A stretch of DNA of 64,000 nt, taken from positions 1-64,000 of the IMG/VR virus record IMGVR_UViG_3300014202_000529; one strand, given 5' to 3'. Under the pieces are notes generated by a model that did no database searches, was not told where the DNA came from, and worked only from the letters and a program-made list of their open reading frames with translations. Position 1 is the stretch's first letter; every line of letters starts with the position of its first letter. Source of the DNA: a virus. Lineage: Duplodnaviria; Caudoviricetes. Both the position numbers and the translations under genes were made by a program. Shown here piece after piece: positions 49,007-61,336 of the stretch.

Positions 49007-49081
49007 TGGTGGACCCTGTAGGTGCTGCCCCTACTGCCTCCGCAGTGTCAATGCGGCACTCTGCTGGTGAGCTAAGGGTCC
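49007..49081 (-). tRNA. tRNA-Val(GAC)
   Basis: CCGCA-TTGACAC-TGCGG anticodon arm; CCA; T-loop GGCAGCA. Confidence 0.88.
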
Positions 49082-49171
49082 GTCTATATTGTGCGTCTAC
49101 TGGTTCAACATCCTCGTTCGCAACGATCTCTTTACTGTCTGCAAATCTTGGCATAATAACCTCACATTATA

Positions 49172-49247
49172 TGGACTCCCTGACAGGACTCGAACCTGCA
49201 TGTCTCTGGTTCGAAGCCAGAGTAGCTTCCATTGCTATCACAGGGAG
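49172..49247 (-). tRNA. tRNA-Arg(TCG)
   Basis: TCTGG-CTTCGAA-CCAGA; CCA. Confidence 0.9.
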
Positions 49248-49603
49248 TGTAACACTTTTAACCATTCGTTGTCAAATACACAATTGTCTGGTGCATGACG
49301 AAACATTGGAGCAATTTGCTCATTCTTATATCCAGCAAGACCGCAACCAATACGAGTTACCAAAAACTCCAGTTCATTATTCTGGGATGCAAAAACAATA
49401 AATTCTTTCACATACGTCTCTATGATATCTAAGGGAAGTACCTCTAAGTGGTGTCCCTTTGTGGGAATTGCATAGGAATTCCCTTGCAACCCCTTTCCCT
49501 GCCCATACTTTGCACCGTAATAGGTTCGAGCATGTAGGGCAGCTCCAGCACCATGACGCCCAGCAAGGTTTGACCCAAATACAAATATTTTATGCGTACT
49601 CAT
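49238..49603 (-). CDS. conserved phage protein (IFVFGSN family)
   Basis: IFVFGSNLAGRHGAGAA, G.SYAIPT and VTRIGCGLAG motifs; stop codon lies inside tRNA-Arg(TCG). Confidence 0.8.
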   Translation of the reverse strand: MSTHKIFVFGSNLAGRHGAGAALHARTYYGAKYGQGKGLQGNSYAIPTKGHHLEVLPLDIIETYVKEFIVFASQNNELEFLVTRIGCGLAGYKNEQIAPMFRHAPDNCVFDNEWLKVLHSL

Positions 49604-49757
49604 AACCATTATCACCATACTCATATGGGACTTTATATTTCCCGTACAAATACCCACATGAACATCTAAATGGGGTATTGAGTGGTCCCTGTGGTGGATT
49701 CGGAAATTCTCTTTTGCATTTGAGACAAATAATAACTGGTGATTCCATGATATTTCA

Positions 49758-49952
49758 TTAACGAGGCTTAAAGAACATCAAAGAATCGGTAGCTTCCTCA
49801 AACATTTCTATACTTATTACACCCTGCAACTGCAATACATGAAAAGAATTCATAAGAAAAATCCACTTCTGCCATTCCAAATCTTCTCTAATTTCCTTGT
49901 CTGTGAAATCTTCCTTATGTCGGAAGTCTCTCTTAATCTCTGTTATCCTCAT
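49758..49952 (-). CDS. hypothetical protein
   Basis: 64 aa with RBS. Confidence 0.55.
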   Translation of the reverse strand: MRITEIKRDFRHKEDFTDKEIREDLEWQKWIFLMNSFHVLQLQGVISIEMFEEATDSLMFFKPR

Positions 49953-49971
49953 AGGAACTTCCTCACATGTA

Positions 49972-50046
49972 TGGTGCCGCTAGCAGGACTCGAACCTGCA
50001 TGGTCCCCTTTAGGAGAGGGGTGCATATCCTTTTTGCTATAGCGGC
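49972..50046 (-). tRNA. tRNA-Arg(CCT)
   Basis: CCCCT-CTCCTAA-AGGGG; CCA. Confidence 0.92.
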
Positions 50047-50053
50047 ATGAATT

Positions 50054-50131
50054 TGGTGCCCCCGGCAGGATTTGAACCTGCGTGGGTTCCGCTTAGAAGG
50101 CGGATGCCTTTCCAGACTAGACTACGGGGGC
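50054..50131 (-). tRNA. tRNA-Arg(TCT)
   Basis: TCCGC-CTTCTAA-GCGGA; CCA. Confidence 0.92.
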
Positions 50132-50140
50132 ATATGTTTC

Positions 50141-50231
50141 TGGCGGAAGACAGAGGACTCGAACCTCACCCCCGCATTGAGAGCCCTTCGTTTTCGAGAC
50201 GAGGCGACGCGGCCCGCGCCGTTTATCTTCC
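50141..50231 (-). tRNA. tRNA-Ser(CGA)
   Basis: Loop CTCGAAA; long variable arm; G73; CCA. Confidence 0.88.
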
Positions 50232-50236
50232 ATAAT

Positions 50237-50570
50237 TGGTGGAGGTGCGGGGCATTGCATCCCCGGTCCAAAAGTACTCTTGAAGTAGGATCTCCATGCT
50301 AATCAATCATTCTACGATCAACTGTGGATTGATACACGGTTGAAAGTTTTGAGGATAAATCTCGTATTCAGTACACCCCCAACTCCTGAATACCAGTCTG
50401 AATTTACGCCTCCCCACTTACAGACTTACATGAGTTGGCGCGAAGTGCGATTAAGCAGCGACGAGTTCTAGTTCTGCAGCAATTAATTGCTTCCATGTTG
50501 TTAACGGAGCCACGGAACTCCGGCATGCCCTCTCATTCTCCAGTTACCCCTGTCGATACTGTTCACCCCC
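50237..50570 (-). ncRNA. ssrA: tmRNA
   Basis: 5' GGGGGTG...TCGAC and 3' CACCTCCACCA with G3-U70; tag frame GCT GCA GAA CTA GAA CTC GTC GCT GCT TAA (AAELELVAA*). Confidence 0.95.
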
Positions 50571-50575
50571 ATGTT

Positions 50576-50791
50576 CTACTTAGGTTGTGGAATTTCTCTA
50601 CCTGCTTCTAATTCAGCTTCCACCCAGGATTTTGCAACCTCGTTTAGATTATCGAATGCTTCTTGTGCAGTTTCACCTTGAGCAAAACATCCCTCGAATT
50701 CAGAAATGAATGAGAAATACCCACCTTCCTCTTCTGGCACTATCACTCGTCCATACGGTCTTTTTAGAATCTCGTCCACTATCTGATTCAT
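50576..50791 (-). CDS. hicB: HicB-like antitoxin (N-terminal domain only)
   Basis: EEEGGY.....EFEGCFAQGET.QEA..NL.E...W......GREIP.P; no hicA nearby. Confidence 0.85.
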   Translation of the reverse strand: MNQIVDEILKRPYGRVIVPEEEGGYFSFISEFEGCFAQGETAQEAFDNLNEVAKSWVEAELEAGREIPQPK

Positions 50792-50807
50792 AACGTTACC
50801 CCAAATA

Positions 50808-50898
50808 TGGCGGAAGAGGGAAGACTTGAACTCCAATGCTAATGATAGCATCCCATCGCTTTCCAAGCGAGTCCGGCAGCCTCTCCGGTTCCTCTTCC
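50808..50898 (-). tRNA. tRNA-Ser(GGA)
   Basis: Loop TTGGAAA; long variable arm; CCA. Confidence 0.88.
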
Positions 50899-50915
50899 AT
50901 TAAACTTGTTCGGCA

Positions 50916-51039
50916 TTCATATAAGTCTTGTCCATCAAAATATATGTGACACATGTATATGAAAGCTGGGGGCAATTAATCTCAGGATCACTAAAATTAA
51001 TCACCCCCGTATGCCCGCTTCCTCACATGGAGGCCGGGT
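50916..51039 (-). ncRNA. three-hairpin spacer RNA, unknown function
   Basis: CCCG/CGGG; GGGGGTGATTAATTTTAG/CTGAGATTAATTGCCCCC; TTCATATA/TATATGAA. Confidence 0.45.
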
Positions 51040-51045
51040 CTGAAA

Positions 51046-51135
51046 TGGCGGAAGACAGAGGACTTGAACCCCATACCCTTTCGAGTACAATCCGCTTTCA
51101 AGGCGGTTGTGTTGACCCGCAACACTTTATCTTCC
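51046..51135 (-). tRNA. tRNA-Ser(TGA)
   Basis: Loop CTTGAAA; long variable arm; CCA. Confidence 0.9.
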
Positions 51136-51141
51136 ATATTA

Positions 51142-51216
51142 TGGTGCTCCTACTGGGTATCGATCCCAGTCTTCTAGATTGAGAATCTAGCGACCTAGCC
51201 AGTAGTCTATAGGAGC
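51142..51216 (-). tRNA. tRNA-Glu(CTC)
   Basis: CTAGA-TTCTCAA-TCTAG; CCA. Confidence 0.92.
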
Positions 51217-51220
51217 TATG

Positions 51221-51295
51221 TGGTGGACCGCCGCGGTATTGCGCCGCGTTCCTCCGGTTAAGAGCCGGGAGCTTCACTATTAAAGCTTGCAGTCC
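51221..51295 (-). tRNA. tRNA-Lys(CTT)
   Basis: Loop CTCTTAA; T-loop CGCAATA; CCA. Confidence 0.88.
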
Positions 51296-51325
51296 GTATT
51301 TATTTTAATAATTTAATAGTCAACC

Positions 51326-53161
51326 TTAATGAAAACAAATATATTCTCGTTGAGCATTTGCTGACATTTGCCACCACATTCCTAGTCCACATTGGGTTGC
51401 GCTAGCTGCATCATTAATGAACTCAAATTTCGATGCTTCTATTTCGAAATTATTTGTGCAAATATCATCCGAACAACTTGTCTCAAAATCTACAACAGAT
51501 TTAAACCCAAAGGATCGATACATTATAGGCAAGTGACCATTTGATACTATAAACCTATTCTTTCGTATAGTTTGTGCCCCAACGTTCAACTTATTTGGAA
51601 GATAGAGTGCCGCGTATTCTGCACCAGGGGTATCAAGTCCTCCACAATTTATAAATATATTTTCCTCAATTATATGATTGGAATTTGTAAAGTTACTAGC
51701 ATTAAATGATATGCATGGACTGGTTGTATTGTTTAGAAAAATATTCCGCTTAACAATATTGCCCTGTGAAGGTCCAGCATATCCCTGAAACTCAAGAACT
51801 TGTGAAATATTCTTCTTGGTAAGAAAAATCCCACCAATTCTTTGATTGGTGAATAAATTACCCTCAAGAAGATTTCCATTTCCATTAAACTGTGCGCGTA
51901 CAGTCATATTGACTATTTTATTATTCCGAAACACATTACCTGTTGCTGCATTTAATCTAGAACCATCAATACCAAATGGACGACAATATTCAACAAACCA
52001 CCGACATGTAAATACTGTGTTTGATACAACATTATTTCTAATCGTTGTTGTTCCGCGAAGTGCCTCCACACTAAATCCAGTGTGTTGCCAATCAATAATA
52101 ATTAGATCATGAAACGAGTTATCATGCGACCCTTCAGAGAGAAGAATTCCATCACCAGTTACTCCATTGAATTCGTGTGCGTAGCCGGCGATTGATTCGG
52201 GTAGTCTTGGATCGATATTACAATTAAAAATTTCAATATTCCTTGATTCTGTACCTGTCCCTCTGCCGGTTGAATCTGTGATATACACCCCACGATGGGA
52301 CCATCGCCCAATTTCACAGTCATTTGTTGTTTTTAATCCAAAAATCCGTATATCTGTCGCGCCTAAAATATAAACAGAACCAAGTCCACCACCACCAACA
52401 TTTGGATTTATAATATCAAAAAACTTATTATTTGCCCTCATAAAACAAAGGGCAGAAAACGAACAGGGTACATTGGTAGATGAGAGAGTTTTAACCACCA
52501 TCAATTTTATTGATGGATTTGATGTCGATGGTAAATATAATCGTTTATTGGGGGCATCAAACCACCATCCGCGAACCGGACCATTTGGTGTTGAGGATTG
52601 ACCCAAGAGAGACTTTACCTCAGACTGCATATGTTCAATGTCATTTAACCACACTCTTTTTGGTGGGTTAATATACGATGGTAGAGAAAGGTACCAAACA
52701 CCTTCACTTTCTTTTACCCAGTTGGCAGCCTGCAGCGCCTCGGTTAAAATTGTTTGATTAAGAATTCTACCTGGATTTCTGGGACAATCGAAACGAATTG
52801 TAATATGTCTGTCCGGCGTACCGGATGCAGAGGGTCCGACTAGAAATCCAGTAGTATGTAACCCACACACATAGACTGTATCCCCGGCATCAATTCCTGT
52901 TACTGGAGTCCAATTCAACCCACTGTCGGTTGAATTGAATGCACCACTCCCCCCCAATGATTCTGCGCATTCATATGAGAGTCCATTACCGTTAATGGAA
53001 CACTCTACTTTTGGTCTCACATACCACGTATTGTTGGCTTCAGACCCAACCAATGCTGGTGCTGGCGGATTAAGTGGGGTCCAAGATGCCCCCATAACTG
53101 TATATTGAACAAGAAACAATGATGAGGTTATTATTAAAAATAATATTGACAATAATTTCAT
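51326..53161 (-). CDS. exported parallel beta-helix (pectate lyase-like) protein
   Basis: Hydrophobic N-terminus (MKLLSILFLII...); WYVRP...GNG.SY, AGDTVYVCG and repeated N-x-(I/F)-x-x-N turns. Confidence 0.75.
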   Translation of the reverse strand: MKLLSILFLIITSSLFLVQYTVMGASWTPLNPPAPALVGSEANNTWYVRPKVECSINGNGLSYECAESLGGSGAFNSTDSGLNWTPVTGIDAGDTVYVCGLHTTGFLVGPSASGTPDRHITIRFDCPRNPGRILNQTILTEALQAANWVKESEGVWYLSLPSYINPPKRVWLNDIEHMQSEVKSLLGQSSTPNGPVRGWWFDAPNKRLYLPSTSNPSIKLMVVKTLSSTNVPCSFSALCFMRANNKFFDIINPNVGGGGLGSVYILGATDIRIFGLKTTNDCEIGRWSHRGVYITDSTGRGTGTESRNIEIFNCNIDPRLPESIAGYAHEFNGVTGDGILLSEGSHDNSFHDLIIIDWQHTGFSVEALRGTTTIRNNVVSNTVFTCRWFVEYCRPFGIDGSRLNAATGNVFRNNKIVNMTVRAQFNGNGNLLEGNLFTNQRIGGIFLTKKNISQVLEFQGYAGPSQGNIVKRNIFLNNTTSPCISFNASNFTNSNHIIEENIFINCGGLDTPGAEYAALYLPNKLNVGAQTIRKNRFIVSNGHLPIMYRSFGFKSVVDFETSCSDDICTNNFEIEASKFEFINDAASATQCGLGMWWQMSANAQREYICFH

Positions 53162-53172
53162 AATTGATACCG

Positions 53173-53250
53173 TGGTGTCCCCGGTTGGATTTAAACCAAC
53201 GATCTCCACCTTCGCAGGGTGGCGTGATATTCGGGCTTCACTACAGGGAC
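53173..53250 (-). tRNA. tRNA-Arg(GCG)
   Basis: CCACC-CTGCGAA-GGTGG; CCA. Confidence 0.88.
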
Positions 53251-53256
53251 GTTAAT

Positions 53257-53353
53257 TGGTGCACCCCCAGTCCTTTAGGGACCATTATATCATCCAACAG
53301 ATTTAGCTCTATCTGTCTATGATGTTTCTTCACCCGCGTCCAGGTGAGGGTGC
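53257..53353 (-). ncRNA. non-canonical tRNA-like RNA with CCA end
   Basis: GCACCCT/GGGGTGC+ACCA acceptor stem and three internal hairpins; no TTC loop and no 7-nt anticodon loop. Confidence 0.65.
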
Positions 53354-53359
53354 TCTATT

Positions 53360-53434
53360 TGGTGCACGGTATAGGTACTGCCCCTATCTTGTCTCGCTTG
53401 TAAGGCGAGTGCATTCCTTCCCTGCCCACCGTGC
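53360..53434 (-). tRNA. tRNA-Val(TAC)
   Basis: CTCGC-CTTACAA-GCGAG; T-loop GGCAGTA; CCA. Confidence 0.88.
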
Positions 53435-53435
53435 G

Positions 53436-53645
53436 TTAGTCGATAATTCTATGGTCTTCGTATATGTCAATTGCTTGCTTTAACTGCTTTCTAATCTCTC
53501 TTGTATTACCTTTTTCAGCAAGCAACTCAATCTCAAGCTTATGTATGCGCTTCATCAACTTCATGCATCCAGGAATAGCTTCTTGTTCACAAGCAATAAG
53601 TTCCTGTCTATGCCGTTTTCCTAGCTTCATCCAATCACTAGACAT
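53436..53645 (-). CDS. hypothetical protein
   Basis: GGAG RBS; MSSDWMKLGK...; fills the gap between two tRNAs. Confidence 0.6.
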   Translation of the reverse strand: MSSDWMKLGKRHRQELIACEQEAIPGCMKLMKRIHKLEIELLAEKGNTREIRKQLKQAIDIYEDHRIID

Positions 53646-53657
53646 AATACTCCACAA

Positions 53658-53734
53658 TGGAGCCGCTTGTTGGACTTGCACCAACCATCTCCACTTTACC
53701 AAAGTGGCGTGTCAACTACCTCTACTTAAGCGGC
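53658..53734 (-). tRNA. tRNA-Thr(GGT)
   Basis: CCACT-TTGGTAA-AGTGG; CCA. Confidence 0.88.
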
Positions 53735-53741
53735 GTAAACT

Positions 53742-53749
53742 TATTTATA
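53742..53749 (-). promoter_or_regulatory. T4-type late promoter inside the tRNA array
   Basis: Exact TATAAATA just upstream of tRNA-Thr(GGT). Confidence 0.6.
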
Positions 53750-53751
53750 AA

Positions 53752-54063
53752 ATAGGACAACATGTAAGCGGCGTTCTGTTTACAATCATCATTTCTCTAG
53801 GAGTATCATTACTGATACCCTCAAGCTGCCTACCCGCGAGTTTTGTACGAGCAGTACACTCGCCTATTTGGCATTGCACCAGGTAGAGATTGCCCGTTTC
53901 ACTTCCTCATCATCGAGGAGCGATGAACCCCCTCATTGATGATGATTACTCGTCTCTGTAGCTCTAATCATCAGGTTACCCTGTGTGGTCGTTAACCACT
54001 ACCATGCTCTAGGTGCGCCGACTTTCCTCTAGCTGTGTGCTAGCGATGATTCTGTTGTCCTAT
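53752..54063 (-). ncRNA. rnpB: RNase P RNA
   Basis: P1 ATAGGACAACA/TGTTGTCCTAT; GAGGAAAGTC, ACAGAGAC, GTGAAACGG and AACAGAACGCCGCTTA conserved regions in the expected order. Confidence 0.93.
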
Positions 54064-54077
54064 AATCTCCTTTCATG

Positions 54078-54154
54078 TGGTACCTGGGGTGGGACTCGAA
54101 CCCACAGGAATCTGTTTTTGAGACAGACATGTTTGCCAATTACATCACCCAGGC
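54078..54154 (-). tRNA. tRNA-Leu(CAA), no long variable arm
   Basis: TCTGT-CTCAAAA-ACAGA; CCA. Confidence 0.9.
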
Positions 54155-54336: not shown

Positions 54337-54337
54337 A

Positions 54338-54733: not shown

Positions 54734-54749
54734 ATGTCCTCATAATATA

Positions 54750-54828
54750 TGGTGCCGTGGGTGGGAGTCGAACCCACAAGCGAATCGTTTTAAGCGACCC
54801 AGGTATGCCAAATTCCCTTCACCACGGC
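54750..54828 (-). tRNA. tRNA-Leu(TAA), no long variable arm
   Basis: GGTCG-CTTAAAA-CGATT; CCA. Confidence 0.9.
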
Positions 54829-54829
54829 A

Positions 54830-54904
54830 TGGAGCCCAAGTCCAGATTTGCGCTGGATCTTACAGTTTACGAAACTATCGTGCCACTATCAACACTTCAT
54901 GGGC
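54830..54904 (-). tRNA. tRNA-Thr(CGT)
   Basis: ATAGT-TTCGTAA-ACTGT; CCA. Confidence 0.85.
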
Positions 54905-54909
54905 ATATA

Positions 54910-54984
54910 TGGTGGGTTGGCTAGGTACTGCCCCTAGTTCCTCCGGTTAAAAGCCGGGAGCTTCACTTACAAAGCTTACAACCC
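54910..54984 (-). tRNA. tRNA-Lys(TTT)
   Basis: Loop CTTTTAA; T-loop GGCAGTA; CCA. Confidence 0.88.
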
Positions 54985-54991
54985 AAAATCG

Positions 54992-55141: not shown

Positions 55142-55217
55142 TGGAGCGGGCTATGGGAATTGCACCCATACGTCCAGGTTGGAAGCCTAGCATGCTGCTG
55201 TTGAACATCAAGCCCGC
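55142..55217 (-). tRNA. tRNA-Gly(TCC)
   Basis: CTAGG-CTTCCAA-CCTGG; CCA. Confidence 0.9.
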
Positions 55218-55228
55218 ATATGATCGGA

Positions 55229-55257
55229 ATTTTAACACATCACCCTACGTCTGTCAA
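55229..55257 (-). promoter_or_regulatory. sigma70-type promoter
   Basis: TTGACA-17-TAAAAT with TGTG extended -10. Confidence 0.75.
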
Positions 55258-55275
55258 TACTATATCGCCAGTTTT

Positions 55276-55350
55276 TGGAGCGGATGGTGGGAGTCGAACC
55301 CACGTGATCTTCCTTGGCAAGGAAGCACATAACCGTTCTGTCACATCCGC
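55276..55350 (-). tRNA. tRNA-Gly(GCC)
   Basis: CTTCC-TTGCCAA-GGAAG; CCA. Confidence 0.92.
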
Positions 55351-55352
55351 AA

Positions 55353-56375: not shown

Positions 56376-56525
56376 GTTACTTCTTACACTCTGAGCAAGG
56401 GTACCAGTATCCTATTGTACCATTGACGCAAAGATGAGCATTCATATGATCGAACTCCGCCTCCTTGCGCGATGGCGATTTCTTTTTAGTATTCCTGCTC
56501 ACATGAACCTCCATAATATAATAAA

Positions 56526-56600
56526 TGGTGCGAGGTCGGAGAATCGAACTCCGGTGTCAGGCTCTTCAGGCCCGCGCTTTGCCAACTAAGCTAACCCCGC
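56526..56600 (-). tRNA. tRNA-Phe(GAA)
   Basis: CGGGC-CTGAAGA-GCCTG; CCA. Confidence 0.92.
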
Positions 56601-56604
56601 ATAA

Positions 56605-56682
56605 TGGCTCCGGTCCCAGGGATCGAACCTGGCTCATTCCGCATTAACAGTGCGGCGCACTCACCCTGAGTGCTAGACCGGA
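56605..56682 (-). tRNA. tRNA-Asn(GTT)
   Basis: CCGCA-CTGTTAA-TGCGG; CCA. Confidence 0.92.
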
Positions 56683-56700
56683 ATAATCTCTATTCAATTT

Positions 56701-56776
56701 TGGTAGGGACACCTGGGCTTGAACCAAGTCTTAAGGTTTCAGAGACCTTCGTGCTCCCAATTACACCATATCCCCA
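56701..56776 (-). tRNA. tRNA-Gln(CTG)
   Basis: AAGGT-CTCTGAA-ACCTT; CCA. Confidence 0.9.
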
Positions 56777-56779
56777 CTA

Positions 56780-57091
56780 CTATCGTGCATGTTTAGGTAA
56801 TATTTCAGGGAAATACCTAGGGCACAAATAAACCATCAGTATCACAACAATAATACTAGAACCCCCCAAACCAAAGACCACGGACCAATCCCAATCCAAC
56901 CCCCACCCTCTAATAGTGGTGAAAGTTATAGATTTTCCTATGATAACCCCCAGACCCAACCAAATAGCAAACCAAAGTAACCAATCAGAAACCATAGCAA
57001 CAAACATTCCACAAACAATAAACAATGCTCCCATAGTTTTCCCAACAACCCCAAATTCATCAAGCAACTCATTAAGTTGATTGTCATTCAT
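56780..57091 (-). CDS. membrane protein
   Basis: About three hydrophobic segments. Confidence 0.65.
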   Translation of the reverse strand: MNDNQLNELLDEFGVVGKTMGALFIVCGMFVAMVSDWLLWFAIWLGLGVIIGKSITFTTIRGWGLDWDWSVVFGLGGSSIIVVILMVYLCPRYFPEILPKHAR

Positions 57092-57608
57092 TACAAAGCT
57101 CCCCATTAAACCATTTAAAACGTAACTTAACTTCTTCTAGAGCAATGGGTTTATATTCGGTCTGCTCAACACAAACACACACATACCACGGATCATCTAG
57201 AACATTTGCATGTGTGTGACCATGAACATTTGCAACAAATCTTCCCTTACTCTCAGGATGCACTGGAATATGGGATAACAGCATCCTATCGAGAATGTGA
57301 TATCCTCGAATATCACGAAAATGCTTCAGGTAATCGGTGATCTTGAAGATATCATGATTACCCTTAATTAAAACCTTGTCACCATTCAATCGTTGCAAAA
57401 CCGCTAATGCTTTTCTAGCAATAACCACATCCCCCAGGTGATACACTTTATCATTCGGACGGACAACCTTGTTCCATTCCTGGATCATGTATTCATCCAT
57501 TTCCTCTGGTGAATCCCACGGTCTCAGTTTGGTACCGTCATTTCTGAGGAACTTACAGACCCCAGCATGACTAAAATGTGTATCGGCTGTAAGAAATATG
57601 TTACTCAT
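57084..57608 (-). CDS. calcineurin-like phosphoesterase
   Basis: ADTHFSH, YHLGD, KGNHD, LSHIP and HGHTH motifs. Confidence 0.9.
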   Translation of the reverse strand: MSNIFLTADTHFSHAGVCKFLRNDGTKLRPWDSPEEMDEYMIQEWNKVVRPNDKVYHLGDVVIARKALAVLQRLNGDKVLIKGNHDIFKITDYLKHFRDIRGYHILDRMLLSHIPVHPESKGRFVANVHGHTHANVLDDPWYVCVCVEQTEYKPIALEEVKLRFKWFNGELCNE

Positions 57609-57612
57609 AATA

Positions 57613-57686
57613 TGGCCGGGACACTCGGTAACGCTCCGAGTCCAACTGGTTCAAAGCCAGCTATGCTTCTTTTACACCATGTCCCA
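57613..57686 (-). tRNA. tRNA-Gln(TTG)
   Basis: GCTGG-CTTTGAA-CCAGT; T-loop AGCGTTA; CCA. Confidence 0.85.
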
Positions 57687-57972
57687 AAAACTGATCCAAT
57701 CCTTCTTTATTTGCGAGTCTCTTTAACGTTTCTGCATGACACCGTTTTGGTGCACAATGACACTTGAGATTCTTACCAACCAACGGATCTAACCAATTGG
57801 GGTCTTCTTTTAATCTCTTCGTTGCATACTCTTCAAACTCATCACATACTCTGTTGCGTTCCTCAAGAGTATCTATGGTCATTATGAAGGGGTTACCCCA
57901 AGGAGTTGATCGATCCACCAAGACCGCTCGACTCATGACTCCTTCAACATCTCTGATATGGTAAATCTTCAT
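57661..57972 (-). CDS. DUF4326 family protein
   Basis: R.TPWGNPF and L.GKNL.CHCAPKRCHA motifs; stop codon lies inside tRNA-Gln(TTG). Confidence 0.85.
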   Translation of the reverse strand: MKIYHIRDVEGVMSRAVLVDRSTPWGNPFIMTIDTLEERNRVCDEFEEYATKRLKEDPNWLDPLVGKNLKCHCAPKRCHAETLKRLANKEGLDQFLGHGVKEA

Positions 57973-57976
57973 AATA

Positions 57977-58066
57977 TGGCGGAAGATACAGGATTTGAAC
58001 CTGTGTGGGAGTTACCCCGCATTGTTTAGCAAACAAGCCCGTTTAGCCAGACTCCGGCAATCTTCC
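57977..58066 (-). tRNA. tRNA-Ser(GCT)
   Basis: Loop TTGCTAA; long variable arm; CCA. Confidence 0.9.
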
Positions 58067-58073
58067 TCGTCTA

Positions 58074-58148
58074 TGGAGTCGCCGATAGGACTCGAACCTA
58101 CATACAACTGCTTTGCAGGCAGCGACCTAGCCTTTCAGTCACGGCGAC
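58074..58148 (-). tRNA. tRNA-Cys(GCA)
   Basis: GCTGC-CTGCAAA-GCAGT; U73; CCA. Confidence 0.92.
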
Positions 58149-58153
58149 ATATA

Positions 58154-58229
58154 TGGCGCGCCCGATGGGTAACGATCCCACTTCATTCCTGATTGACAAT
58201 CAGGCGTCCATCCTACAGACTCCGAGCGC
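58154..58229 (-). tRNA. tRNA-Asp(GTC)
   Basis: CCTGA-TTGTCAA-TCAGG; G73; CCA. Confidence 0.88.
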
Positions 58230-58243
58230 ATTCTATTATTTTC

Positions 58244-58327
58244 TGGTGGACCATCAAGGAATCGAACCTTGTGGGAATTAACGACTGGTTTACAGCCAGC
58301 CCCGCCTCCATAACGGTCTAATGGTCC
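58244..58327 (-). tRNA. tRNA-Tyr(GTA)
   Basis: GCTGG-CTGTAAA-CCAGT; CCA. Confidence 0.88.
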
Positions 58328-58335
58328 ATAAATCT

Positions 58336-58425
58336 TGGGTGCCTAGGTCCCCGGTTATTTCCAGACTGGGGGGACTCCACGAATGTCTGGCCAGATGTTC
58401 CCATGTCAACACCCTGGGGAACCCG
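58336..58425 (-). ncRNA. pseudoknot-rich RNA, unknown function
   Basis: GTTCCC/GGGAAC and CCAGAC/GTCTGG stems with loop pairings GTCCCC/GGGGAC and GGGTG/CACCC; directly downstream of a promoter. Confidence 0.55.
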
Positions 58426-58439
58426 CGACTCTATTTCAG

Positions 58440-58468
58440 ATTCTAACACACCATCGGGAACATGTCAA
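58440..58468 (-). promoter_or_regulatory. sigma70-type promoter
   Basis: TTGACA-17-TAGAAT with TGTG extended -10. Confidence 0.78.
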
Positions 58469-58477
58469 CTACTAATT

Positions 58478-58566
58478 TGGTCCACCCGTTAGGAATCGAA
58501 CCTAAACGAGGCTCCAATCTAGAGCGAGGGGTTTATAAGACCCCCTTGCCTCCAAGGCGCGGGTGG
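58478..58566 (-). tRNA. tRNA-Ile(TAT) with long variable arm and minimal D arm
   Basis: GGGGT-CTTATAA-ACCCC; V arm GCTCTA/TGGAGC; canonical T arm; CCA. Confidence 0.8.
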
Positions 58567-58576
58567 ATATTTTATT

Positions 58577-58652
58577 TGGTGCCTGTGGTAGGATTTGAAC
58601 CTACACTTGACGGCTTCTAAGACCGTTGACTCTGCCGTTGGTCTACACAGGC
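58577..58652 (-). tRNA. tRNA-Leu(TAG), no long variable arm
   Basis: ACGGT-CTTAGAA-GCCGT; CCA. Confidence 0.9.
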
Positions 58653-58657
58653 GATAT

Positions 58658-59116
58658 TTAAAATTTCTTACTGACTTCATTTGAAAGGGGACTCAAGTTT
58701 CCCTTTGCATCCTTCGCTTTCAGTGCAAAGTAATATGTAGCACCTTTCAAGATCCCTGTCAACTTCAATTCTGTTACTAACCCAATTTCAATTGGTGTCT
58801 GATACTTTCCCGGCTCCAGACCCCAATACACCAGATACCCACTTGTTACCCCATCAACCGGTGGAGCCCATGTTAATGTTGCTTCCCCCATAATCACTAC
58901 AGGTGGGGTTGCTGCTGCGATTTCAGCAAGCATTGCATCTTTACCACCAGGATTCGACCATGATTTACCTACAAACTTACCAGAGTGGCATTCATATACA
59001 TTCGACTTATTGTTGTTATGACACCCATATGAATCCAATGCACCAGCATGTGGAAACGCTGAGGAGGCACTAAGGAATAAGAACAATGTGGCAACCACAC
59101 TCACTATAATATTCAT
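58658..59116 (-). CDS. exported YHYH-like plus fibronectin type III protein
   Basis: Signal peptide; H.G.LD.YGCH...Y.CH; TLTW.P, GY.VYWG, TYYFA..A.D..GN.S..S motifs. Confidence 0.8.
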   Translation of the reverse strand: MNIIVSVVATLFLFLSASSAFPHAGALDSYGCHNNNKSNVYECHSGKFVGKSWSNPGGKDAMLAEIAAATPPVVIMGEATLTWAPPVDGVTSGYLVYWGLEPGKYQTPIEIGLVTELKLTGILKGATYYFALKAKDAKGNLSPLSNEVSKKF

Positions 59117-59130
59117 ACATCCTCCGGTTA

Positions 59131-59204
59131 TGGTGGCGGTAGAAGGAGTTGCACCTTCTCAGTACGACTTATGAAATCGTCTGGCTGCGCTTGTGCTTAC
59201 CGCC
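59131..59204 (-). tRNA. tRNA-Met(CAT), elongator-type (Ile2 not excluded)
   Basis: ACGAT-TTCATAA-GTCGT; G1-C72; irregular D arm; CCA. Confidence 0.75.
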
Positions 59205-59210
59205 TTTATA

Positions 59211-59286
59211 TGGTAGCGGGTTAACGAGTTGCACGTTAAACTCAAGGTTATGAGCCTTGACGGGTCGCTGTCCCCTTCCACCCGCA
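59211..59286 (-). tRNA. tRNA-Met(CAT), initiator-like
   Basis: 1:72 mismatch; CAAGG-CTCATAA-CCTTG; CCA. Confidence 0.8.
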
Positions 59287-59300
59287 AATTTTAAAACTGA

Positions 59301-59416
59301 GAGGCCGTGCTTCCGTTACACCACATTCCTACGTTACCGATCTTACTGGTGGCCATCCAGGAGTCTTAATTCATGATCGGTGTTCAGAACAATCGGATTT
59401 GAACCGTTCCTGCCCC
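59301..59416 (-). ncRNA. circularly permuted tRNA-like RNA B
   Basis: GGGGC-AGGA-ACGG TTCAAAT CCGA-TTGTTCT...GGAATG-TG-GTGT AACGGAA GCAC-G-GCCTC. Confidence 0.68.
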
Positions 59417-59420
59417 GTTA

Positions 59421-59497
59421 TGGTGCCTCTGGTAGGACTCGAACCTACACTAAACAGGCTCTCGACCTGCCGACTCTGCCAATTGGTCTACAGAGGC
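59421..59497 (-). tRNA. tRNA-Leu(GAG), no long variable arm, C33
   Basis: GCAGG-TCGAGAG-CCTGT; CCA. Confidence 0.85.
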
Positions 59498-59501
59498 GAA
59501 A

Positions 59502-59579
59502 TGGTCTGGGCGGCAGGATTTGAACCTGCGATTTCTCGCCTCCAAAGCGAGAGGAGTGGCCGGACTCTCCTACACCCAG
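59502..59579 (-). tRNA. tRNA-Pro(TGG)
   Basis: CTCGC-TTTGGAG-GCGAG; A37; CCA. Confidence 0.9.
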
Positions 59580-59587
59580 ATATATTT

Positions 59588-59662
59588 TGGCGCTCCTTGT
59601 GGGTATCGATCCCACTTCATATGCTTGAAAGGCATATATCCTAGCCAGTAGACGAAAGGAGC
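59588..59662 (-). tRNA. tRNA-Glu(TTC)
   Basis: TATGC-CTTTCAA-GCATA; CCA. Confidence 0.92.
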
Positions 59663-59670
59663 AAAAATTT

Positions 59671-59744
59671 TGGTGGACCTTGACGGTAACCCTCCGTCCC
59701 CGCCCGGGTGCAAACCGGGAATGCTCGTTCAACACCTAAGGCCC
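59671..59744 (-). tRNA. tRNA-Ala(TGC), divergent copy
   Basis: G3-U70; CCCGG-TTTGCAC-CCGGG; T-loop AGGGTTA; CCA. Confidence 0.8.
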
Positions 59745-59747
59745 AAT

Positions 59748-60005
59748 ACCCACCATTTAACCTCCACGAAGCAGGAGGCACCATCTTTCTGGGGTCCATA
59801 AGGAGAGTCCCAGAAATTAAGCTGGTGGACTTACTTACCGTCTAAGGGTATCTAGTGAACCAATCTAGCCCTTTATCGGCTACGGAGCGATCCACAACCC
59901 CTAGACTACCTCTATCTATGTAACCCCCGCACCACGTCTTTGAAGCCGATCCAATCCAATTTAACGGCGCGAGCGACTTCCTCTAACAATGATACTGAGG
60001 GGTCC
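59748..60005 (-). ncRNA. about 260-nt structured RNA, unknown function
   Basis: ATCGGCT/AGCCGAT, TTTCTGGG/CCCAGAAA, GCCTCC/GGAGGT and CACCA/TGGTG stems. Confidence 0.5.
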
Positions 60006-60079
60006 TGGGGTGATCGGTGGGTAATGCTCCCACTTTTCCTGGGCCACAACCAGGCGCATTTCTTTTATGCTACGACCAC
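60006..60079 (-). tRNA. tRNA-His(GTG)
   Basis: CCTGG-TTGTGGC-CCAGG; C73; -1 position is T; CCA. Confidence 0.85.
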
Positions 60080-60084
60080 AACTG

Positions 60085-60275
60085 ATCCACTATTTTTCAA
60101 GTGGAAATTGTTACCCCTTTACCCCACCGTGCGTAATGAGAACCACCGCAACAAAGGCAGTGGAAGAGATAACTCCATCGATCCGGGTCTCATGGAGCCG
60201 GAAATTGCGGGCATTTGATGGGTAGCGCCCTACTACCTTAGTGCAGTCTTCCTCTTGCGGAGTAGTTTCTGCCAC
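60085..60275 (-). ncRNA. about 190-nt tandem-pseudoknot RNA, unknown function
   Basis: GCAG/CTGC with CTAC/GTAG; GGTAG/CTACC with GGGC/GCCC; TCCGG/CCGGA with CTCCAT/ATGGAG; CCACTGC/GCGGTGG; TCCACT/AGTGGA. Confidence 0.5.
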
Positions 60276-60276
60276 A

Positions 60277-60352
60277 TGGAGCCGCCAACTGGACTTGCAC
60301 CAGCCTATTCCTGCTTACAAGACAGGCGATCAACTATCTGACCCATAGCGGC
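60277..60352 (-). tRNA. tRNA-Thr(TGT)
   Basis: CCTGT-CTTGTAA-GCAGG; CCA. Confidence 0.88.
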
Positions 60353-60405
60353 ATATCTCTTTTAACACATAAACCAACAGTATCGTCATTGACGCATAGA
60401 CCAGT

Positions 60406-60505
60406 GTATTGGGTGCAGGATTTCTGGGATGGTGTGCCCAAAGCCTACCTGCGCTTCTCACGGTGCACCTACTGAGTGTGCTTGGTGTTTACACTAACCC
60501 AATAC
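60406..60505 (-). ncRNA. multibranch RNA immediately 3' of the HNH gene
   Basis: 9-bp closing stem GTATTGGGT/ACCCAATAC enclosing CTCA/TGAG and GCAGG/CCTGC arms. Confidence 0.5.
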
Positions 60506-60513
60506 CCCGTTTC

Positions 60514-61038
60514 CTATTTCAATTCGACATTCCAGTACAAGTAATCTGCCCATGTTTCTGGCATCTTGCGCAATCCCAACGTCACTGTTACCACTTGGGA
60601 CCATACTGGTTGCTTAGGTTTCTTGAGCAACTTCATTCCTGCTTGCTCTGGTGTCCTACCCTCTTTCTTAGAGTTACATGGGACACATGCCGTTACAATG
60701 TTCTCCCAAGTCTTCGTTCCACCCTGAGCAACCGGTTTCACGTGGTCAAATGTCAACTCTTCTGATTCAAACTTTTGAGCACAGTACTGGCAATGAAAAC
60801 CGTCCCTAGTGAAAATGTTCAAACGAGTAAATTTCACTGGTGCTTTTCTGCGAAAACGAACCGGAACCAACATCCTCAACACCGAAGGAATCTTCATGCT
60901 AAACGAAATAGAATGGATTTCCTCTTCGTGCTCTTCAATAACTTCTACTTTACCAGTCCAGAGCAAAGTGATTGCTCGCTGCCAATTGACAACTTGTAGA
61001 GGTTCATATGAGCTGTTCAAGAGCAATGTCATATGCAT
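60514..61038 (-). CDS. HNH endonuclease
   Basis: LLLN.SYEPL, R.NIF.RD...CQYC, LT.DHV.P...GG..TWEN.VTAC..CN..K..RTP motifs. Confidence 0.92.
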   Translation of the reverse strand: MHMTLLLNSSYEPLQVVNWQRAITLLWTGKVEVIEEHEEEIHSISFSMKIPSVLRMLVPVRFRRKAPVKFTRLNIFTRDGFHCQYCAQKFESEELTFDHVKPVAQGGTKTWENIVTACVPCNSKKEGRTPEQAGMKLLKKPKQPVWSQVVTVTLGLRKMPETWADYLYWNVELK

Positions 61039-61062
61039 GATAACCACCCTCCAGTTTCCACT

Positions 61063-61091
61063 ACTCTAACACACCACAATTCACTTGTCAA
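61063..61091 (-). promoter_or_regulatory. sigma70-type promoter
   Basis: TTGACA-17-TAGAGT with TGTG extended -10. Confidence 0.7.
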
Positions 61092-61099
61092 CTAGTATT

Positions 61100-61173
61100 T
61101 GGCATGGGATGCAGGAGTCGAACCTGCGCCGGCTGTTTTGGAGACAGCAATGCTACCGTAACACTTATCCCAT
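61100..61173 (-). tRNA. tRNA-Trp(CCA)
   Basis: GCTGT-CTCCAAA-ACAGC; G73; CCA. Confidence 0.93.
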
Positions 61174-61178
61174 ATATT

Positions 61179-61252
61179 TGGTACGCCTCCACAGAATTGC
61201 ACTGTGATCTCCCGCTAATCAGGCGAGGGTACTGCTGTTGTACGAGAGGCGT
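61179..61252 (-). tRNA. tRNA-Ile(GAT)
   Basis: CTCGC-CTGATTA-GCGGG; T37; CCA. Confidence 0.85.
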
Positions 61253-61261
61253 ATTAAATTT

Positions 61262-61336
61262 TGGTGGAGGCTGGCGGTTCTGCCCCGCCGACTTCTCGGT
61301 GCAAGCGAGATGGTTTCCTAATTAGCCTAAGCCCCC
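61262..61336 (-). tRNA. tRNA-Ala(TGC)
   Basis: G3-U70; TCTCG-CTTGCAC-CGAGA; T-loop GGCAGAA; CCA. Confidence 0.88.

Follow-up and report, generated by a model that had tools for sequence, protein, structure and literature searches.

Why should a phage carry the gene for the RNA of RNase P within a long array of tRNA genes, and how far could such an array serve it independently of its host? The question is raised by a window of 64,000 nucleotides, whose minus strand carries, from 49007 to 61336, 39 tRNA genes together with single genes for a tmRNA and an RNase P RNA; a few phage ORFs are interspersed over this span of about 12 kb. The span forms the stable-RNA island of a T4-like phage with a complete genome of 168.8 kb, which has a 91-bp terminal repeat, a CheckV completeness estimate of 100% and a full set of T4-type genes, with gp23, gp20, gp17, gp18, gp43 and gp32 among them. 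ARAGORN called no tRNAs outside the island across the whole 168,789-bp genome. No description of a virus-borne RNase P ribozyme gene was found in print.

The tRNA genes and their signals

An earlier note on this DNA had described 39 co-oriented tRNAs between these two ends, all with an encoded CCA and together covering the 20 amino acids. ARAGORN, Rfam and our own cloverleaf scan bear this out, with the ends exact: the CCA terminus is encoded in all 39, acceptor stems are paired at 5-7 of 7 positions and T stems at 4-5 of 5, and all 20 amino acids are represented, taking into account that identity is deduced from the anticodon only. Standard thresholds give 33 of the tRNAs (28 called by ARAGORN at default settings and five added by Rfam at scores that reach the 29-bit family cut-off), relaxed settings five, and our own scan one. 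With this support from ARAGORN and Rfam, the RNAs can be regarded as real genes. All of those described below lie on the minus strand.

Default ARAGORN and Rfam both recognise tRNA-Arg with anticodons TCG (49172..49247; 36.8 bits), CCT (49972..50046), TCT (50054..50131) and GCG (53173..53250), the class II tRNA-Ser (TGA) (51046..51135) and tRNA-Ser (GCT) (57977..58066), the class I tRNA-Leu (CAA) of 77 nt (54078..54154), tRNA-Leu (TAG) (58577..58652) and tRNA-Leu (GAG) (59421..59497), and also tRNA-Gly (GCC) (55276..55350), tRNA-Phe (GAA) (56526..56600), tRNA-Asn (GTT) (56605..56682), tRNA-Gln (CTG) (56701..56775), tRNA-Cys (GCA) (58074..58148), tRNA-Pro (TGG) (59502..59579), tRNA-Glu (TTC) (59588..59662) and tRNA-Trp (CCA) (61100..61173). 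A cloverleaf parse was further obtained for tRNA-Glu (CTC) (51142..51216; T-loop ATCGATA), tRNA-Gln (TTG) (57613..57686; G55-type T-loop AGCGTTA), tRNA-Asp (GTC) (58154..58229; T-loop ATCGTTA), tRNA-His (GTG) (60006..60079), which has C73, no encoded G-1 and a G55-type T-loop, and tRNA-Thr (TGT) (60277..60352; G55-type T-loop TGCAAGT).

Default ARAGORN also gives the class II tRNA-Ser (CGA) (50141..50231) and tRNA-Tyr (GTA) (58244..58327), the class I tRNA-Leu (TAA) (54750..54825) and, with a parse in both cases, tRNA-Ile (GAT) (61179..61252; G55-type T-loop TGCAATT) and a CAT tRNA with an initiator-like U1-U72 mismatch and a G55-type T-loop (59211..59286). The last of its calls, an 89-nt class II tRNA with anticodon TAT and A73 (58478..58566), is assigned to isoleucine by anticodon only, and aligns with a 93-nt counterpart in contig L257 in which the stem changes are compensating.

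The five additions from Rfam all have G55-type T-loops. They are tRNA-Val (GAC) (49007..49081, matched at 49010-49081; GGCAGCA, CCA, 45 bits, parse with 7/7 acceptor and 5/5 T-stem pairs), tRNA-Thr (GGT) (53658..53734, matched at 53661-53734; TGCAAGT, 43.4 bits, also ARAGORN -ps80), tRNA-Gly (TCC) (55142..55217, matched at 55148-55215; TGCAATT, 30.2 bits, also -ps80), a CAT tRNA of Met or Ile2 type (59131..59204, matched at 59134-59204; TGCAACT, 29.3 bits, parse 7/7 and 5/5) and the first gene of the island, tRNA-Ala (TGC) with G3-U70 (61262..61336, matched at 61265-61336; GGCAGAA, 41.9 bits, parsed).

Among the relaxed calls, tRNA-Lys (TTT) (54910..54984; G55-type T-loop GGCAGTA) parses and scores 28.6 bits in Rfam, slightly below the cut-off; a TTT-anticodon tRNA with an identical T-loop occurs in L113. 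The other four are found by ARAGORN at -ps80 only: the class II tRNA-Ser (GGA) (50808..50898; 7/7 acceptor), called by default in the relative L111; tRNA-Lys (CTT) (51221..51295; G55-type CGCAATA, parsed), called by default in L113 and L114; tRNA-Thr (CGT) (54830..54904; G55-type CGCAAAT, parsed), similar in its T-loop to a CGT-anticodon tRNA of L113 and L116 (CGCACAT); and a tRNA-Ala (TGC) with G3-U70 (59671..59744; T-loop AGGGTTA, parse 7/7 and 5/5). The 39th, tRNA-Val (TAC) (53360..53434), was seen by our own scan alone, with 7/7 acceptor, 5/5 T-stem and 5/5 anticodon-stem pairs, a CCA and the G55-type T-loop GGCAGTA; the same scan found TAC-anticodon tRNAs with an identical T-loop in the related contigs L113 and L115.

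The unusual G55 T-loop is thus present in 15 of the 39 tRNAs, the other 24 having the canonical TTC (20) or ATC or TTT variants (four). T stands at position -1 in 27 of the 39.

A consensus scan places a putative sigma-70-like promoter, matching 11 of 12, at 55229..55257 (minus strand), upstream of the unit that includes the RNase P RNA, and similar sites on this strand at 58440-58468, 53443-53470 (just upstream of tRNA-Val (TAC)) and 49246-49275. The scan returned 48 sites, against 32.8 +/- 5.9 in shuffles, a modest enrichment in what are consensus matches only. The same kind of scan suggests a terminator-like hairpin of 12 pairs followed by a T run at 61346..61376 (minus strand), which would close the upstream unit immediately ahead of the first tRNA.

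RNase P RNA and tmRNA

The ssrA and rnpB genes named in the earlier note are both present, at 100.8 and 208.1 bits in Rfam. The RNase P RNA (53749..54062, minus strand; 314 nt) is of bacterial class A and aligns end to end with the RF00010 model (positions 1-367; cut-off 100). Helices P1-P5, P7-P12 and P15-P18 are present, P13/P14 are absent, and the consensus is matched in P4, J3/4, J18/2, J2/4 and the GGGUAGGC stretch. P4 carries two pair flips, compensated on both strands. Among nine RNase P RNAs from phages or metagenomes, pairing holds in 93.5% of cells, and both partners vary in 38 of the 62 pairs; none of 500 shuffles attained this level, and slid controls were 34-42% paired. Thus, the molecule looks functional; its gene is conserved within the array and under selection for its fold. 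It is closely framed by tRNAs, as tRNA-Leu (CAA) ends 15 nt before it and tRNA-Thr (GGT) begins 14 nt after it.

The tmRNA (50237..50570, minus strand) covers positions 1-374 of RF00023 (cut-off 47), and has a G3-U70 acceptor, an encoded CCA and an 8-nt T-loop, ATGCAATG. It is not called by ARAGORN at default settings; at -ps80, the only setting that calls it, the predicted tag is AAELELVAA. It lies 5 nt past the stop of a HicB/UPF0150-like ORF (50576..50866, minus strand; PF21748 and PF15919 on residues 42-95) and 5 nt ahead of tRNA-Ser (CGA). As the TTG start runs into tRNA-Ser (GGA), the real start of this ORF is probably below 50808. The array also contains an HNH endonuclease gene (60514..61047, minus strand; PF14279, PF01844).

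The P4 double flip was found in six metagenome contigs and in no species genomes. The order of neighbouring tRNAs is common to five of these six contigs, L112 being the exception, and G55-type T-loops also occur in the related contigs with this P4 variant; in our own scan of 12 other phage loci, only one of about 82 tRNAs has one. Narrow pattern scans located an RNase P RNA away from the contig ends in 17 further viral contigs (14 confirmed by Rfam, three by our own profile). In seven of the 17 a tmRNA lies within 1.3 kb of it; thus, the combination of tRNAs with a tmRNA and an RNase P RNA is a recurrent one in phages. At eight other loci (L111, L114, L099, L100, L245, L248, L250 and L255) a tRNA follows the RNase P RNA at a distance of 0-6 nt. 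However, in four related contigs (L112, L113, L115 and L116) some 490-620 nt separate the RNase P RNA from the next tRNA, so that punctuation by tRNAs is not universal.

The gene is accessory. No RNase P RNA was found in 15 IMG/VR records whose gp23 is 58-94% identical; three of these relatives, one at 96% completeness and two at about 75%, have 6, 26 and 27 tRNAs, so that phages process large tRNA sets in its absence as well.

Dependence on the host

A cluster on the same strand adjoins the island downstream, formed by the RNA ligase RtcB (43431..44633; PF01139, E 1.4e-125; phrog_1075), an ATP-dependent ligase with DNA-ligase-type adenylation and OB domains (45619..46821; PF01068, PF14743; phrog_114) and RlaP, a Pol-beta-type nucleotidyltransferase of RNA-repair loci (46811..47752; PF10127, E 1.4e-15; phrog_388). 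Pfam also identifies TusA (37870-38250), a ClpP-like protein (38500-39165) and an HD protein (36953-37507), so that all the proteins listed in the earlier note (RtcB, a nucleotidyltransferase, TusA, ClpP, HicB and HD) are there. Elsewhere in the genome, a GGQ release-factor-like protein adjoins a second RNA ligase.

The description of the island as near self-sufficient was wrong. The genome encodes neither RnpA nor SmpB, and Pfam scans of its ORFs gave no aminoacyl-tRNA synthetase or CCA-adding enzyme domains; thus, every RNA of the island needs host proteins. None of six viral records bearing an RNase P RNA encodes RnpA; completeness is 90% or more in four of the six.

A role for the RNase P RNA

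We consider it probable that the phage RNase P RNA serves the maturation of the island's own tRNAs beside the host RnpA. Several host-type promoters within the island would probably drive its expression early in infection, producing multi-gene precursors from which the RNase P RNA and tmRNA may be freed, in the manner of tRNA punctuation, by cutting at the 5' end of the tRNA that follows and trimming after the tRNA that precedes. With host RnpA, the phage RNA would form extra RNase P, accelerating the 5' maturation of a burst of CCA-bearing pre-tRNAs and of pre-tmRNA. The tRNAs, which by themselves should suffice to read every sense codon, would be charged by host synthetases, and the tmRNA would act with host SmpB.

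A tentative alternative, to which we give a minor share of credence, is that the island and the RtcB, ligase and RlaP genes mainly allow survival of host tRNA cutting or depletion, or of ribosome stalling. The tRNA set would replace cut host tRNAs, RtcB would reseal them, ribosomes that stall would be freed by tmRNA, and a tRNA supply independent of the host would be maintained by the RNase P RNA. That phage tRNAs evade anticodon nucleases is proposed in PMC10264068, and the replacement of host tRNAs lost to defence nucleases, which corresponds to the offsetting of host tRNA destruction invoked by the earlier note, is a published idea (PMC10264068). The 39 anticodons capable of reading all sense codons, the repair genes directly downstream on the same strand and the GGQ protein next to an RNA ligase fit such a role, and the altered T-loop of 15 tRNAs and the tmRNA could remove a recognition element. 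The earlier note had extended this to a coordinated kit whose components should co-occur in relatives: the RNA trio does recur in viral contigs, but the proteins do not accompany it, as RtcB is missing from all five capsid relatives searched, and the TusA, ClpP-like and HD genes lie 10-12 kb off the island amid ordinary T4-like genes, with nothing in these data that ties them to the RNAs. In other respects this explanation overlaps the one that we prefer, the selective reason being the sole difference.

It is improbable that the RNase P RNA is a specialised ribozyme, co-evolved with odd tRNAs (G55 T-loops, D-loops without GG) on which the host enzyme would be poor, so that the phage must supply its own. 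That RNase P recognises the tRNA elbow is known (PMC4810234), and the concentration of G55-type T-loops in this island and in the P4-variant contigs, as against the other phage loci, would agree with it. However, RNase P RNAs also occur in phages with ordinary TTC T-loops, so that the presence of the gene is not tied to odd tRNAs; moreover, the features specific to this lineage's ribozyme lie in P4 rather than in the elbow-binding domain, and 24 of the 39 tRNAs lack the G55 T-loop.

Improbable, too, is a non-catalytic or passenger RNA, whether a decoy for host RnpA or another factor, a useless captured host gene or an assembly chimera. The lack of an encoded RnpA partner, the capsid relatives devoid of the gene and the missing P13/P14 could be read in this way, but the fold covaries in relatives, the catalytic-core stretches are retained, and the P4-variant RNA sits amid tRNA genes in six independent metagenome contigs. 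A pure decoy would presumably not require an intact P4 and J18/2, and a passenger or chimera is at odds with a gene that lies within a complete, terminally repeated phage genome. Pfam scans of this genome gave no integrase domain, and therefore the gene is not an attachment-site remnant.

That the phage RNase P RNA looks functional agrees also with its size, which falls within the range of cellular genes: RNase P RNAs of 293-319 nt from Sutterellaceae and Rickettsiales score 204-227 bits.

RNase P RNA in a T4-like phage

The island of tRNA genes, tmRNA and RNase P RNA lies in an IMG/VR virus genome of 168,789 bp, the first 64,000 of which form the window; CheckV rates this genome as 100% complete, and its direct terminal repeat measures 91 bp. 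Pfam recognises T4-type genes for gp23, gp20, gp17, gp18, gp19, a gp21-type protease, gp43, gp41, gp44, UvsX/W/Y and RegA, together with those for the baseplate proteins gp5, gp6, gp8, gp25 and gp53, gp32, gp59, the late-transcription co-activator and RNase H. Judged by gp32, cyanophages and Pelagibacter phage HTVC008M are its closest cultured relatives, sharing about 50% amino acid identity; taking this gene set and these relatives together, the island is part of a genuine T4-like myovirus that is uncultured. Neither Megablast of the island nor blastn of the RNase P RNA, a method insensitive for such RNAs, matched any of 50,697 GenBank phage records.

Outside the window, at about 83.7-87.1 kb and 78.8 kb of the phage record G000 (1765-5100 of stretch L003 and 15779-16462 of stretch L002), there are genes for a PilZ-domain cellulose-synthase-like glycosyltransferase, a LuxI-type autoinducer synthase-like protein and a BcsS-like protein. 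As judged from gene content, the LuxI-like, BcsS and PilZ/cellulose-synthase genes give a hint of what may be a proteobacterial host; when the ribozyme core is compared by blastn, Burkholderiales MAGs come out weakly best.

The rnpB gene that the earlier note had named within the island is a class A RNase P RNA at 53749-54062 on the minus strand, scoring 208.1 bits against RF00010 (cut-off 100; E 1.4e-66), with model positions 1-367 matched in 314 nt. Helices P1-P5, P7-P12 and P15-P18 are present, P3 being short and P12 long, and the conserved strands of P4, J18/2 and J2/4 are kept. Also kept is the GGGUAGGC stretch, which aligns to the consensus CGGGUaggc of loop 15 and which we take to hold the GGU by which this loop base-pairs with the 3' CCA of tRNAs. 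The P13/P14 arm of the specificity domain is missing (43 model positions deleted); since small cellular class A RNAs of similar length exist, this arm was treated as dispensable and not as defining. Both strands of P4, with its bulged U and flanking strands (GAGGAAAGUC... and ACAGAAC...GCUUA), are present, and the helix reads GUCGGCGC / GAACGCCGCUUA against a consensus of GUCCGGGC / GAACCCGGCUUA, with two base pairs flipped. As both divergent pairs are changed on both sides, the helix is kept.

Covariation was evaluated on an alignment of this RNA with those of the six metagenome contigs that share its P4 variant (L111-L116) and two huge-phage copies. RNAalifold recovers P1, P3, P4, P5, P7-P9, P15, P16 and P18, and both-sided changes are found in 38 of 62 pairs. 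Paired cells reach 93.5%, compared with 76.8% in shuffles and 34-42% with slid partners, and on none of five measures was any of 500 shuffles as high as the real alignment; the tested structure is RNAalifold's prediction from the same alignment, which makes the comparison somewhat favourable, and the margin is large. We conclude that selection acts on this fold in phages.

RnpA (PF00825) was absent at E<=1 from the genome of this phage and at E<=0.01 from five other viral records bearing an RNase P RNA, four of these six RnpA-less records being at least 90% complete. Thus, any holoenzyme would need a host protein. An ORF of 131 aa at 54338-54733 was considered as a phage RNase P protein and discarded: it has no family match, and one of the P4-variant contigs (L113) has no room for it, with two Leu tRNAs 8 nt apart.

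The tRNA set, its unusual elbows and the tmRNA

Regarding the tRNA genes, the claimed count of 39 was borne out by ARAGORN, Rfam and our own cloverleaf scan, and the claimed limits of the island, 49007 and 61336, are exact. CCA is encoded in 39/39 and the anticodons cover all 20 amino acids, as had also been proposed. Default ARAGORN yields 28 minus-strand tRNAs, which lie from 49172 to 61252, and the rest of the 168.8-kb genome yields none; Rfam provides five more at or above its 29-bit cut-off and another at 28.6 bits, and four appear only with ARAGORN -ps80. The scan for CCA-ended cloverleaves recovered 36 of these 38 and revealed a new Val-TAC tRNA (53360-53434) with perfectly paired acceptor, T and anticodon stems, three other new matches being set aside as lying inside protein genes and pairing poorly. 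Lys-CTT and Ser-GGA, among the six weakest calls, are both called by default ARAGORN in related contigs, where our scan also finds tRNAs with anticodons TAC, TTT and CGT whose odd T-loops are identical or similar; for Ala-TGC at 59671 no counterpart came to light. Of the checks that the earlier note had called for, ARAGORN or Rfam recovers 38 of the 39 tRNAs, and Rfam recovers the tmRNA and the RNase P RNA.

With 39 co-oriented tRNAs in 12.3 kb of a bona fide phage genome, the island is a large phage array, and, if wobble is ordinary and U34 reads the Ala and Pro boxes, the set would cover all sense codons. The base at -1 is T, the nucleotide preferred by bacterial RNase P, in 27 of the 39 tRNAs.

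Several individual tRNAs depart from the common forms. All four Leu-anticodon tRNAs (54078-54154, 54750-54825, 58577-58652 and 59421-59497) are 76-77 nt long and lack a long variable arm, being therefore class I; bacterial tRNA-Leu is class II. Short Leu tRNAs also occur in the arrays of two P4-variant contigs (L113, L114) and three IMG/VR viral contigs (L245, L250, L255). The tRNA at 58478-58566, of class II and 89 nt long, has the anticodon TAT, a short D-arm and A73; its 93-nt counterpart is located at 3091-3183 of L257, an unrelated viral contig bearing tmRNA and RNase P RNA. Differences between the two in the acceptor, anticodon and variable stems are compensating, and the variable loop AGATT is common to both; AUA is used at 12.2 per 1000 codons in the phage. 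The CAT tRNA at 59211-59286 has an initiator-like U1-U72 mismatch, and tRNA-His (60006-60079) has C73 and no encoded G-1, the preceding base being T.

The most extended departure concerns the elbow. The T-loops of the 39 tRNAs comprise 20 of the usual TTC type, four ATC or TTT, and 15 with G at position 55 (G55), 14 of the latter being N-G-C and one A-G-G. A GG within nucleotides 13-24 is found in 20/20 TTC tRNAs vs 5/15 G55 tRNAs, and in parser-delimited D-loops in 14/14 vs 0/10, most D-loops of the G55 group having a single A-G. These patterns suggest that in G55 tRNAs the G18-U55 tertiary pair is replaced and G19-C56 retained. In our own scan, the P4-variant contigs contain the same mix of T-loop types, and 12 other phage loci contain one G55-type among about 82 tRNAs. 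Due to these odd elbows, 6 to 11 of the 39 tRNA genes escaped standard finders, a point of relevance for annotation.

The claimed ssrA gene is a tmRNA at 50237-50570 (RF00023, 100.8 bits; cut-off 47), separated by 5 nt from the next tRNA. Its tRNA-like domain is evident in the acceptor GGGGGUG / CACCUCC, with G3-U70, and the 3' end ACCA, and its T-loop, ATGCAATG, is of the same kind as those of the G55 tRNAs. The gene is absent from default ARAGORN calls, perhaps due to its 8-nt T-loop, and the tag AAELELVAA-stop is given only by the relaxed -ps80 search. No SmpB (PF01668) was matched at E<=1 in the phage genome, and host SmpB would thus be required.

A G55/no-GG elbow in 15 tRNAs and a tmRNA bears on tRNA folding, on modification (pseudouridine 55, Gm18) and possibly on recognition by defence nucleases. 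A limited look at the literature found no description of phage tRNAs with such elbows. The part of a study on escape from tRNA-targeting defence considered here (PMC10264068) describes, as in this phage, a large phage tRNA complement departing from host-like tRNAs; however, those departures are in the anticodon loop and the present ones in the T-loop and D-loop elbow.

Recurrence and origin of the ribozyme

A pattern tying CAAATAGG to the variant 3' strand of P4 matched six metagenome contigs (L111-L116), and had no match in the species-genome collection, a scan that detects RNase P RNAs where present (it was positive with another pattern), or in IMG/VR apart from the phage's own record. The six contigs carry class A RNase P RNAs of 265-312 nt and 175-201 bits, and in five of them Leu-CAA stands before and Arg-GCG after the ribozyme, as in the window, L112 being different. 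In IMG/VR, a first scan with GAGGAAAGTC...ACAGAACNNNNGCTTA and a gap of 225-255 yielded no match, own record left out. Among 15 IMG/VR records with gp23 58-94% identical, none has an RNase P RNA or a tmRNA above cut-off. These relatives include one 96% complete with 6 tRNAs and two about 75% complete with 26 and 27; the closest (94%) is a 38% fragment without tRNAs, which therefore probably does not cover the island region. Since the RNase P RNA is missing in these relatives, the gene is accessory within the capsid lineage.

Three narrow exact patterns over IMG/VR gave 34 distinct viral contigs. In 17 of them, of 13 to 463 kb, the RNase P RNA lies away from contig ends; ten hold it in tRNA arrays, and tRNAs within 2 kb number just one or two in the other seven (L249, L251-L254, L256, L257), five of which also have a tmRNA in that range. 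Rfam confirms 14 of the 17 at 100.8-209 bits (L099, L100, L245, L247-L257), and the other three (L262, L274, L279) were recognised by our own profile and their flanking tRNAs. A tmRNA is located within 1.3 kb of the RNase P RNA in 7/17 (L245, L247, L251-L254, L257). The remaining 17 of the 34, with 0-1 tRNA nearby and most matches at contig ends, are taken to be host flanks; three of those scanned with Rfam carry full-size RNAs (316-334 bits).

Two of these groups show particular arrangements. In the huge-phage group of L262, L274 and L279 (456, 100 and 49 kb), the RNase P RNA lies between Cys and Gly tRNAs and P4 has compensated changes of its own (GUCGGGGC with CCCG; GUCGGAGC with UCCG). The RNase P RNA of L245 and L247 (45 and 77 kb) is 274 nt long, scores 100.8 bits, which is at the family cut-off, is abutted by tRNAs on both sides, with 0 nt between, and has a tmRNA beside it; our scan finds encoded CCA in none of the 14 tRNAs of this array. 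Of the co-occurrence across related phages that the earlier note had set as a check, the part concerning RNA genes holds, with tRNAs, tmRNA and RNase P RNA travelling together in several phage groups, but its more distant proteins are not tied to this set.

The possibility that phage copies could be told from cellular ones by a sequence mark or by size was also considered. The mark TTAGAGCNACAGAGACGA was rejected as a sign of a phage-specific clade, being carried by more than 120 bacterial genomes, Burkholderiales, Omnitrophota, Rickettsiales and Patescibacteria included. Small size was likewise rejected: class A RNAs of Sutterellaceae, other Burkholderiales and Rickettsiales measure 293-358 nt, at 204-244 bits. 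Six bacterial genomes from Sutterellaceae and Rickettsiales (L126, L147, L189, L198, L128, L187) have copies of 293-319 nt and 204-227 bits, so that reduced cellular ribozymes are common in those groups. In a tree of 125 RNase P RNA cores, the window clade is supported at 99/89 and falls, together with proteobacterial and other phage RNAs, in a group that is unresolved, and L245 joins Patescibacteria on a long branch. The tree shows phage RNase P RNAs forming, on these core sequences, apparently no one obvious clade; its rows were picked by our own patterns, those below 225 profile positions (L255 among them) being dropped, and a tree so chosen cannot count phage acquisitions.

Neighbouring genes, proposed role and known systems

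The proteins listed near the island in the earlier note (RtcB, a nucleotidyltransferase, TusA, ClpP, HicB and an HD hydrolase) are all present by Pfam, but only RtcB, the RlaP nucleotidyltransferase and the HicB-like protein, together with a ligase, adjoin or lie inside it. The repair module consists of RtcB (PF01139, E 1.4e-125), RlaP (PF10127, E 1.4e-15) and a PF01068 ligase, and RtcB was found in none of the five gp23 relatives searched. The HicB-like ORF (50576-50866), read from a TTG start, overlaps tRNA-Ser (GGA) at 50808-50898; its domain match begins at residue 42, and the true start is thus probably downstream of this tRNA. The HD protein at 36953-37507 corresponds to the hydrolase part of RelA/SpoT (NCBIfam TIGR00691, E 3e-21), by which it may be a small (p)ppGpp hydrolase. 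Outside the window, 70130-71169 of the phage record (7130-8169 of L002) holds a pair of genes: that of a 140-aa protein with a GGQ release-factor domain, weakly matching the PrfH and ArfB models, overlaps the start of an RNA-ligase-domain gene. This pair resembles the PrfH-RtcB rescue-and-repair pair (PMC9304027).

The reading of the island as a translation kit thus holds by half: tRNAs, tmRNA and RNase P RNA do occur together in several phage groups, in this phage next to an RNA-repair cluster, but the distant proteins are not tied to the set, and near self-sufficiency does not stand. The use against translation-targeting immunity that the earlier note proposed is conjectural. With no RnpA or SmpB in the genome, the set depends on the host for both, as well as for synthetases and factors.

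The gene identity of the RNase P RNA, the conservation of its fold, its placement and its recurrence are established. The end of tRNA-Leu (CAA) is followed after 15 nt by the ribozyme, and this after 14 nt by the start of tRNA-Thr (GGT). In eight other loci (L111, L114, L099, L100, L245, L248, L250, L255) the RNase P RNA is separated from the following tRNA by 0-6 nt; in L112, L113, L115 and L116 the gap to the next tRNA is about 490-620 nt. Consensus pattern matches point to strong sites of sigma-70 type within the island on its coding strand, for example at 55257-55229 upstream of the ribozyme unit, and to a 12-pair terminator directly before the first tRNA.

From this arrangement we infer how the RNase P RNA may be transcribed and processed, which protein it joins and what it brings to the phage. 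Multi-gene precursors would be cut apart at the tRNAs, freeing the ribozyme and the tmRNA; the phage RNase P RNA so released would assemble with host RnpA, and the extra RNase P capacity would serve a burst of 39 pre-tRNAs and the pre-tmRNA. Such added capacity is the most likely mechanism, and we lean towards it with some confidence. The wider proposal is that unrelated phage lineages, from a 169-kb T4-like phage to 460-kb huge phages, carry a working, array-embedded RNase P ribozyme, freed by tRNA cuts and hybrid with host RnpA, which in the window lineage has a P4 unseen among cellular genomes and serves tRNAs with rebuilt elbows; its chances appear evenly balanced. If true, RNase P would count as a virus-encoded ribozyme, and the conserved, covarying array copy would add 5' tRNA maturation to the translation steps supplied or taken over by phages. 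The question is raised whether a viral catalytic RNA and a host protein form a hybrid enzyme, and these natural minimal variants (265-325 nt, altered P4) would be of use for structure-function work.

To our knowledge, RNase P RNA, among the few universal ribozymes, has counted as a gene of cells and organelles. In the literature consulted, supplements and subscription journals aside, we found no RNase P RNA described as encoded by a phage or other virus, and the P finder paper makes no mention of phage, virus or plasmid. Compared with cellular class A RNase P RNA (RF00010; E. coli M1 RNA, rnpB), the window RNA has the same full-length model match and conserved single-stranded core, and its size and score match the small Sutterellaceae and Rickettsiales versions. 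However, it lacks P13/P14, has two P4 pairs flipped, comes from a genome without rnpA, and is virus-encoded and wedged between tRNAs, whereas 14 of 16 complete bacterial loci scanned have no tRNA within about 2 kb.

Huge phages carry many tRNAs and tmRNA, SmpB and other translation factors, according to the main text of Al-Shayeb et al. 2020 (PMC7162821), in which, supplements aside, RNase P or rnpB is not mentioned. As far as that text goes, the window phage is alike in its many tRNAs and tmRNA, but is no huge phage, being T4-like with 169 kb, and lacks SmpB. Jakobid mitochondria likewise have a small genome that specifies tRNAs along with an RNase P RNA of bacterial kind and a tmRNA in reduced form (PMC3590771). 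That trio belongs to an organelle lineage and descends vertically from a bacterium, whereas here the same trio is found in a lytic-type virus, the ribozyme being patchy among relatives. The protein partners of jakobid RNase P RNA and tmRNA are nucleus-encoded.

Finally, T4 has a co-oriented cluster of 8 tRNAs, processed by RNase P with the host RNase P RNA, which also holds small stable RNAs and has homing endonuclease genes nearby; separate RNA repair enzymes act against anticodon nucleases. Against the 8 tRNAs of T4, the phage described here has 39 together with a tmRNA and an RNase P RNA, and it has RtcB in place of the Pnkp/Rnl1 pair.
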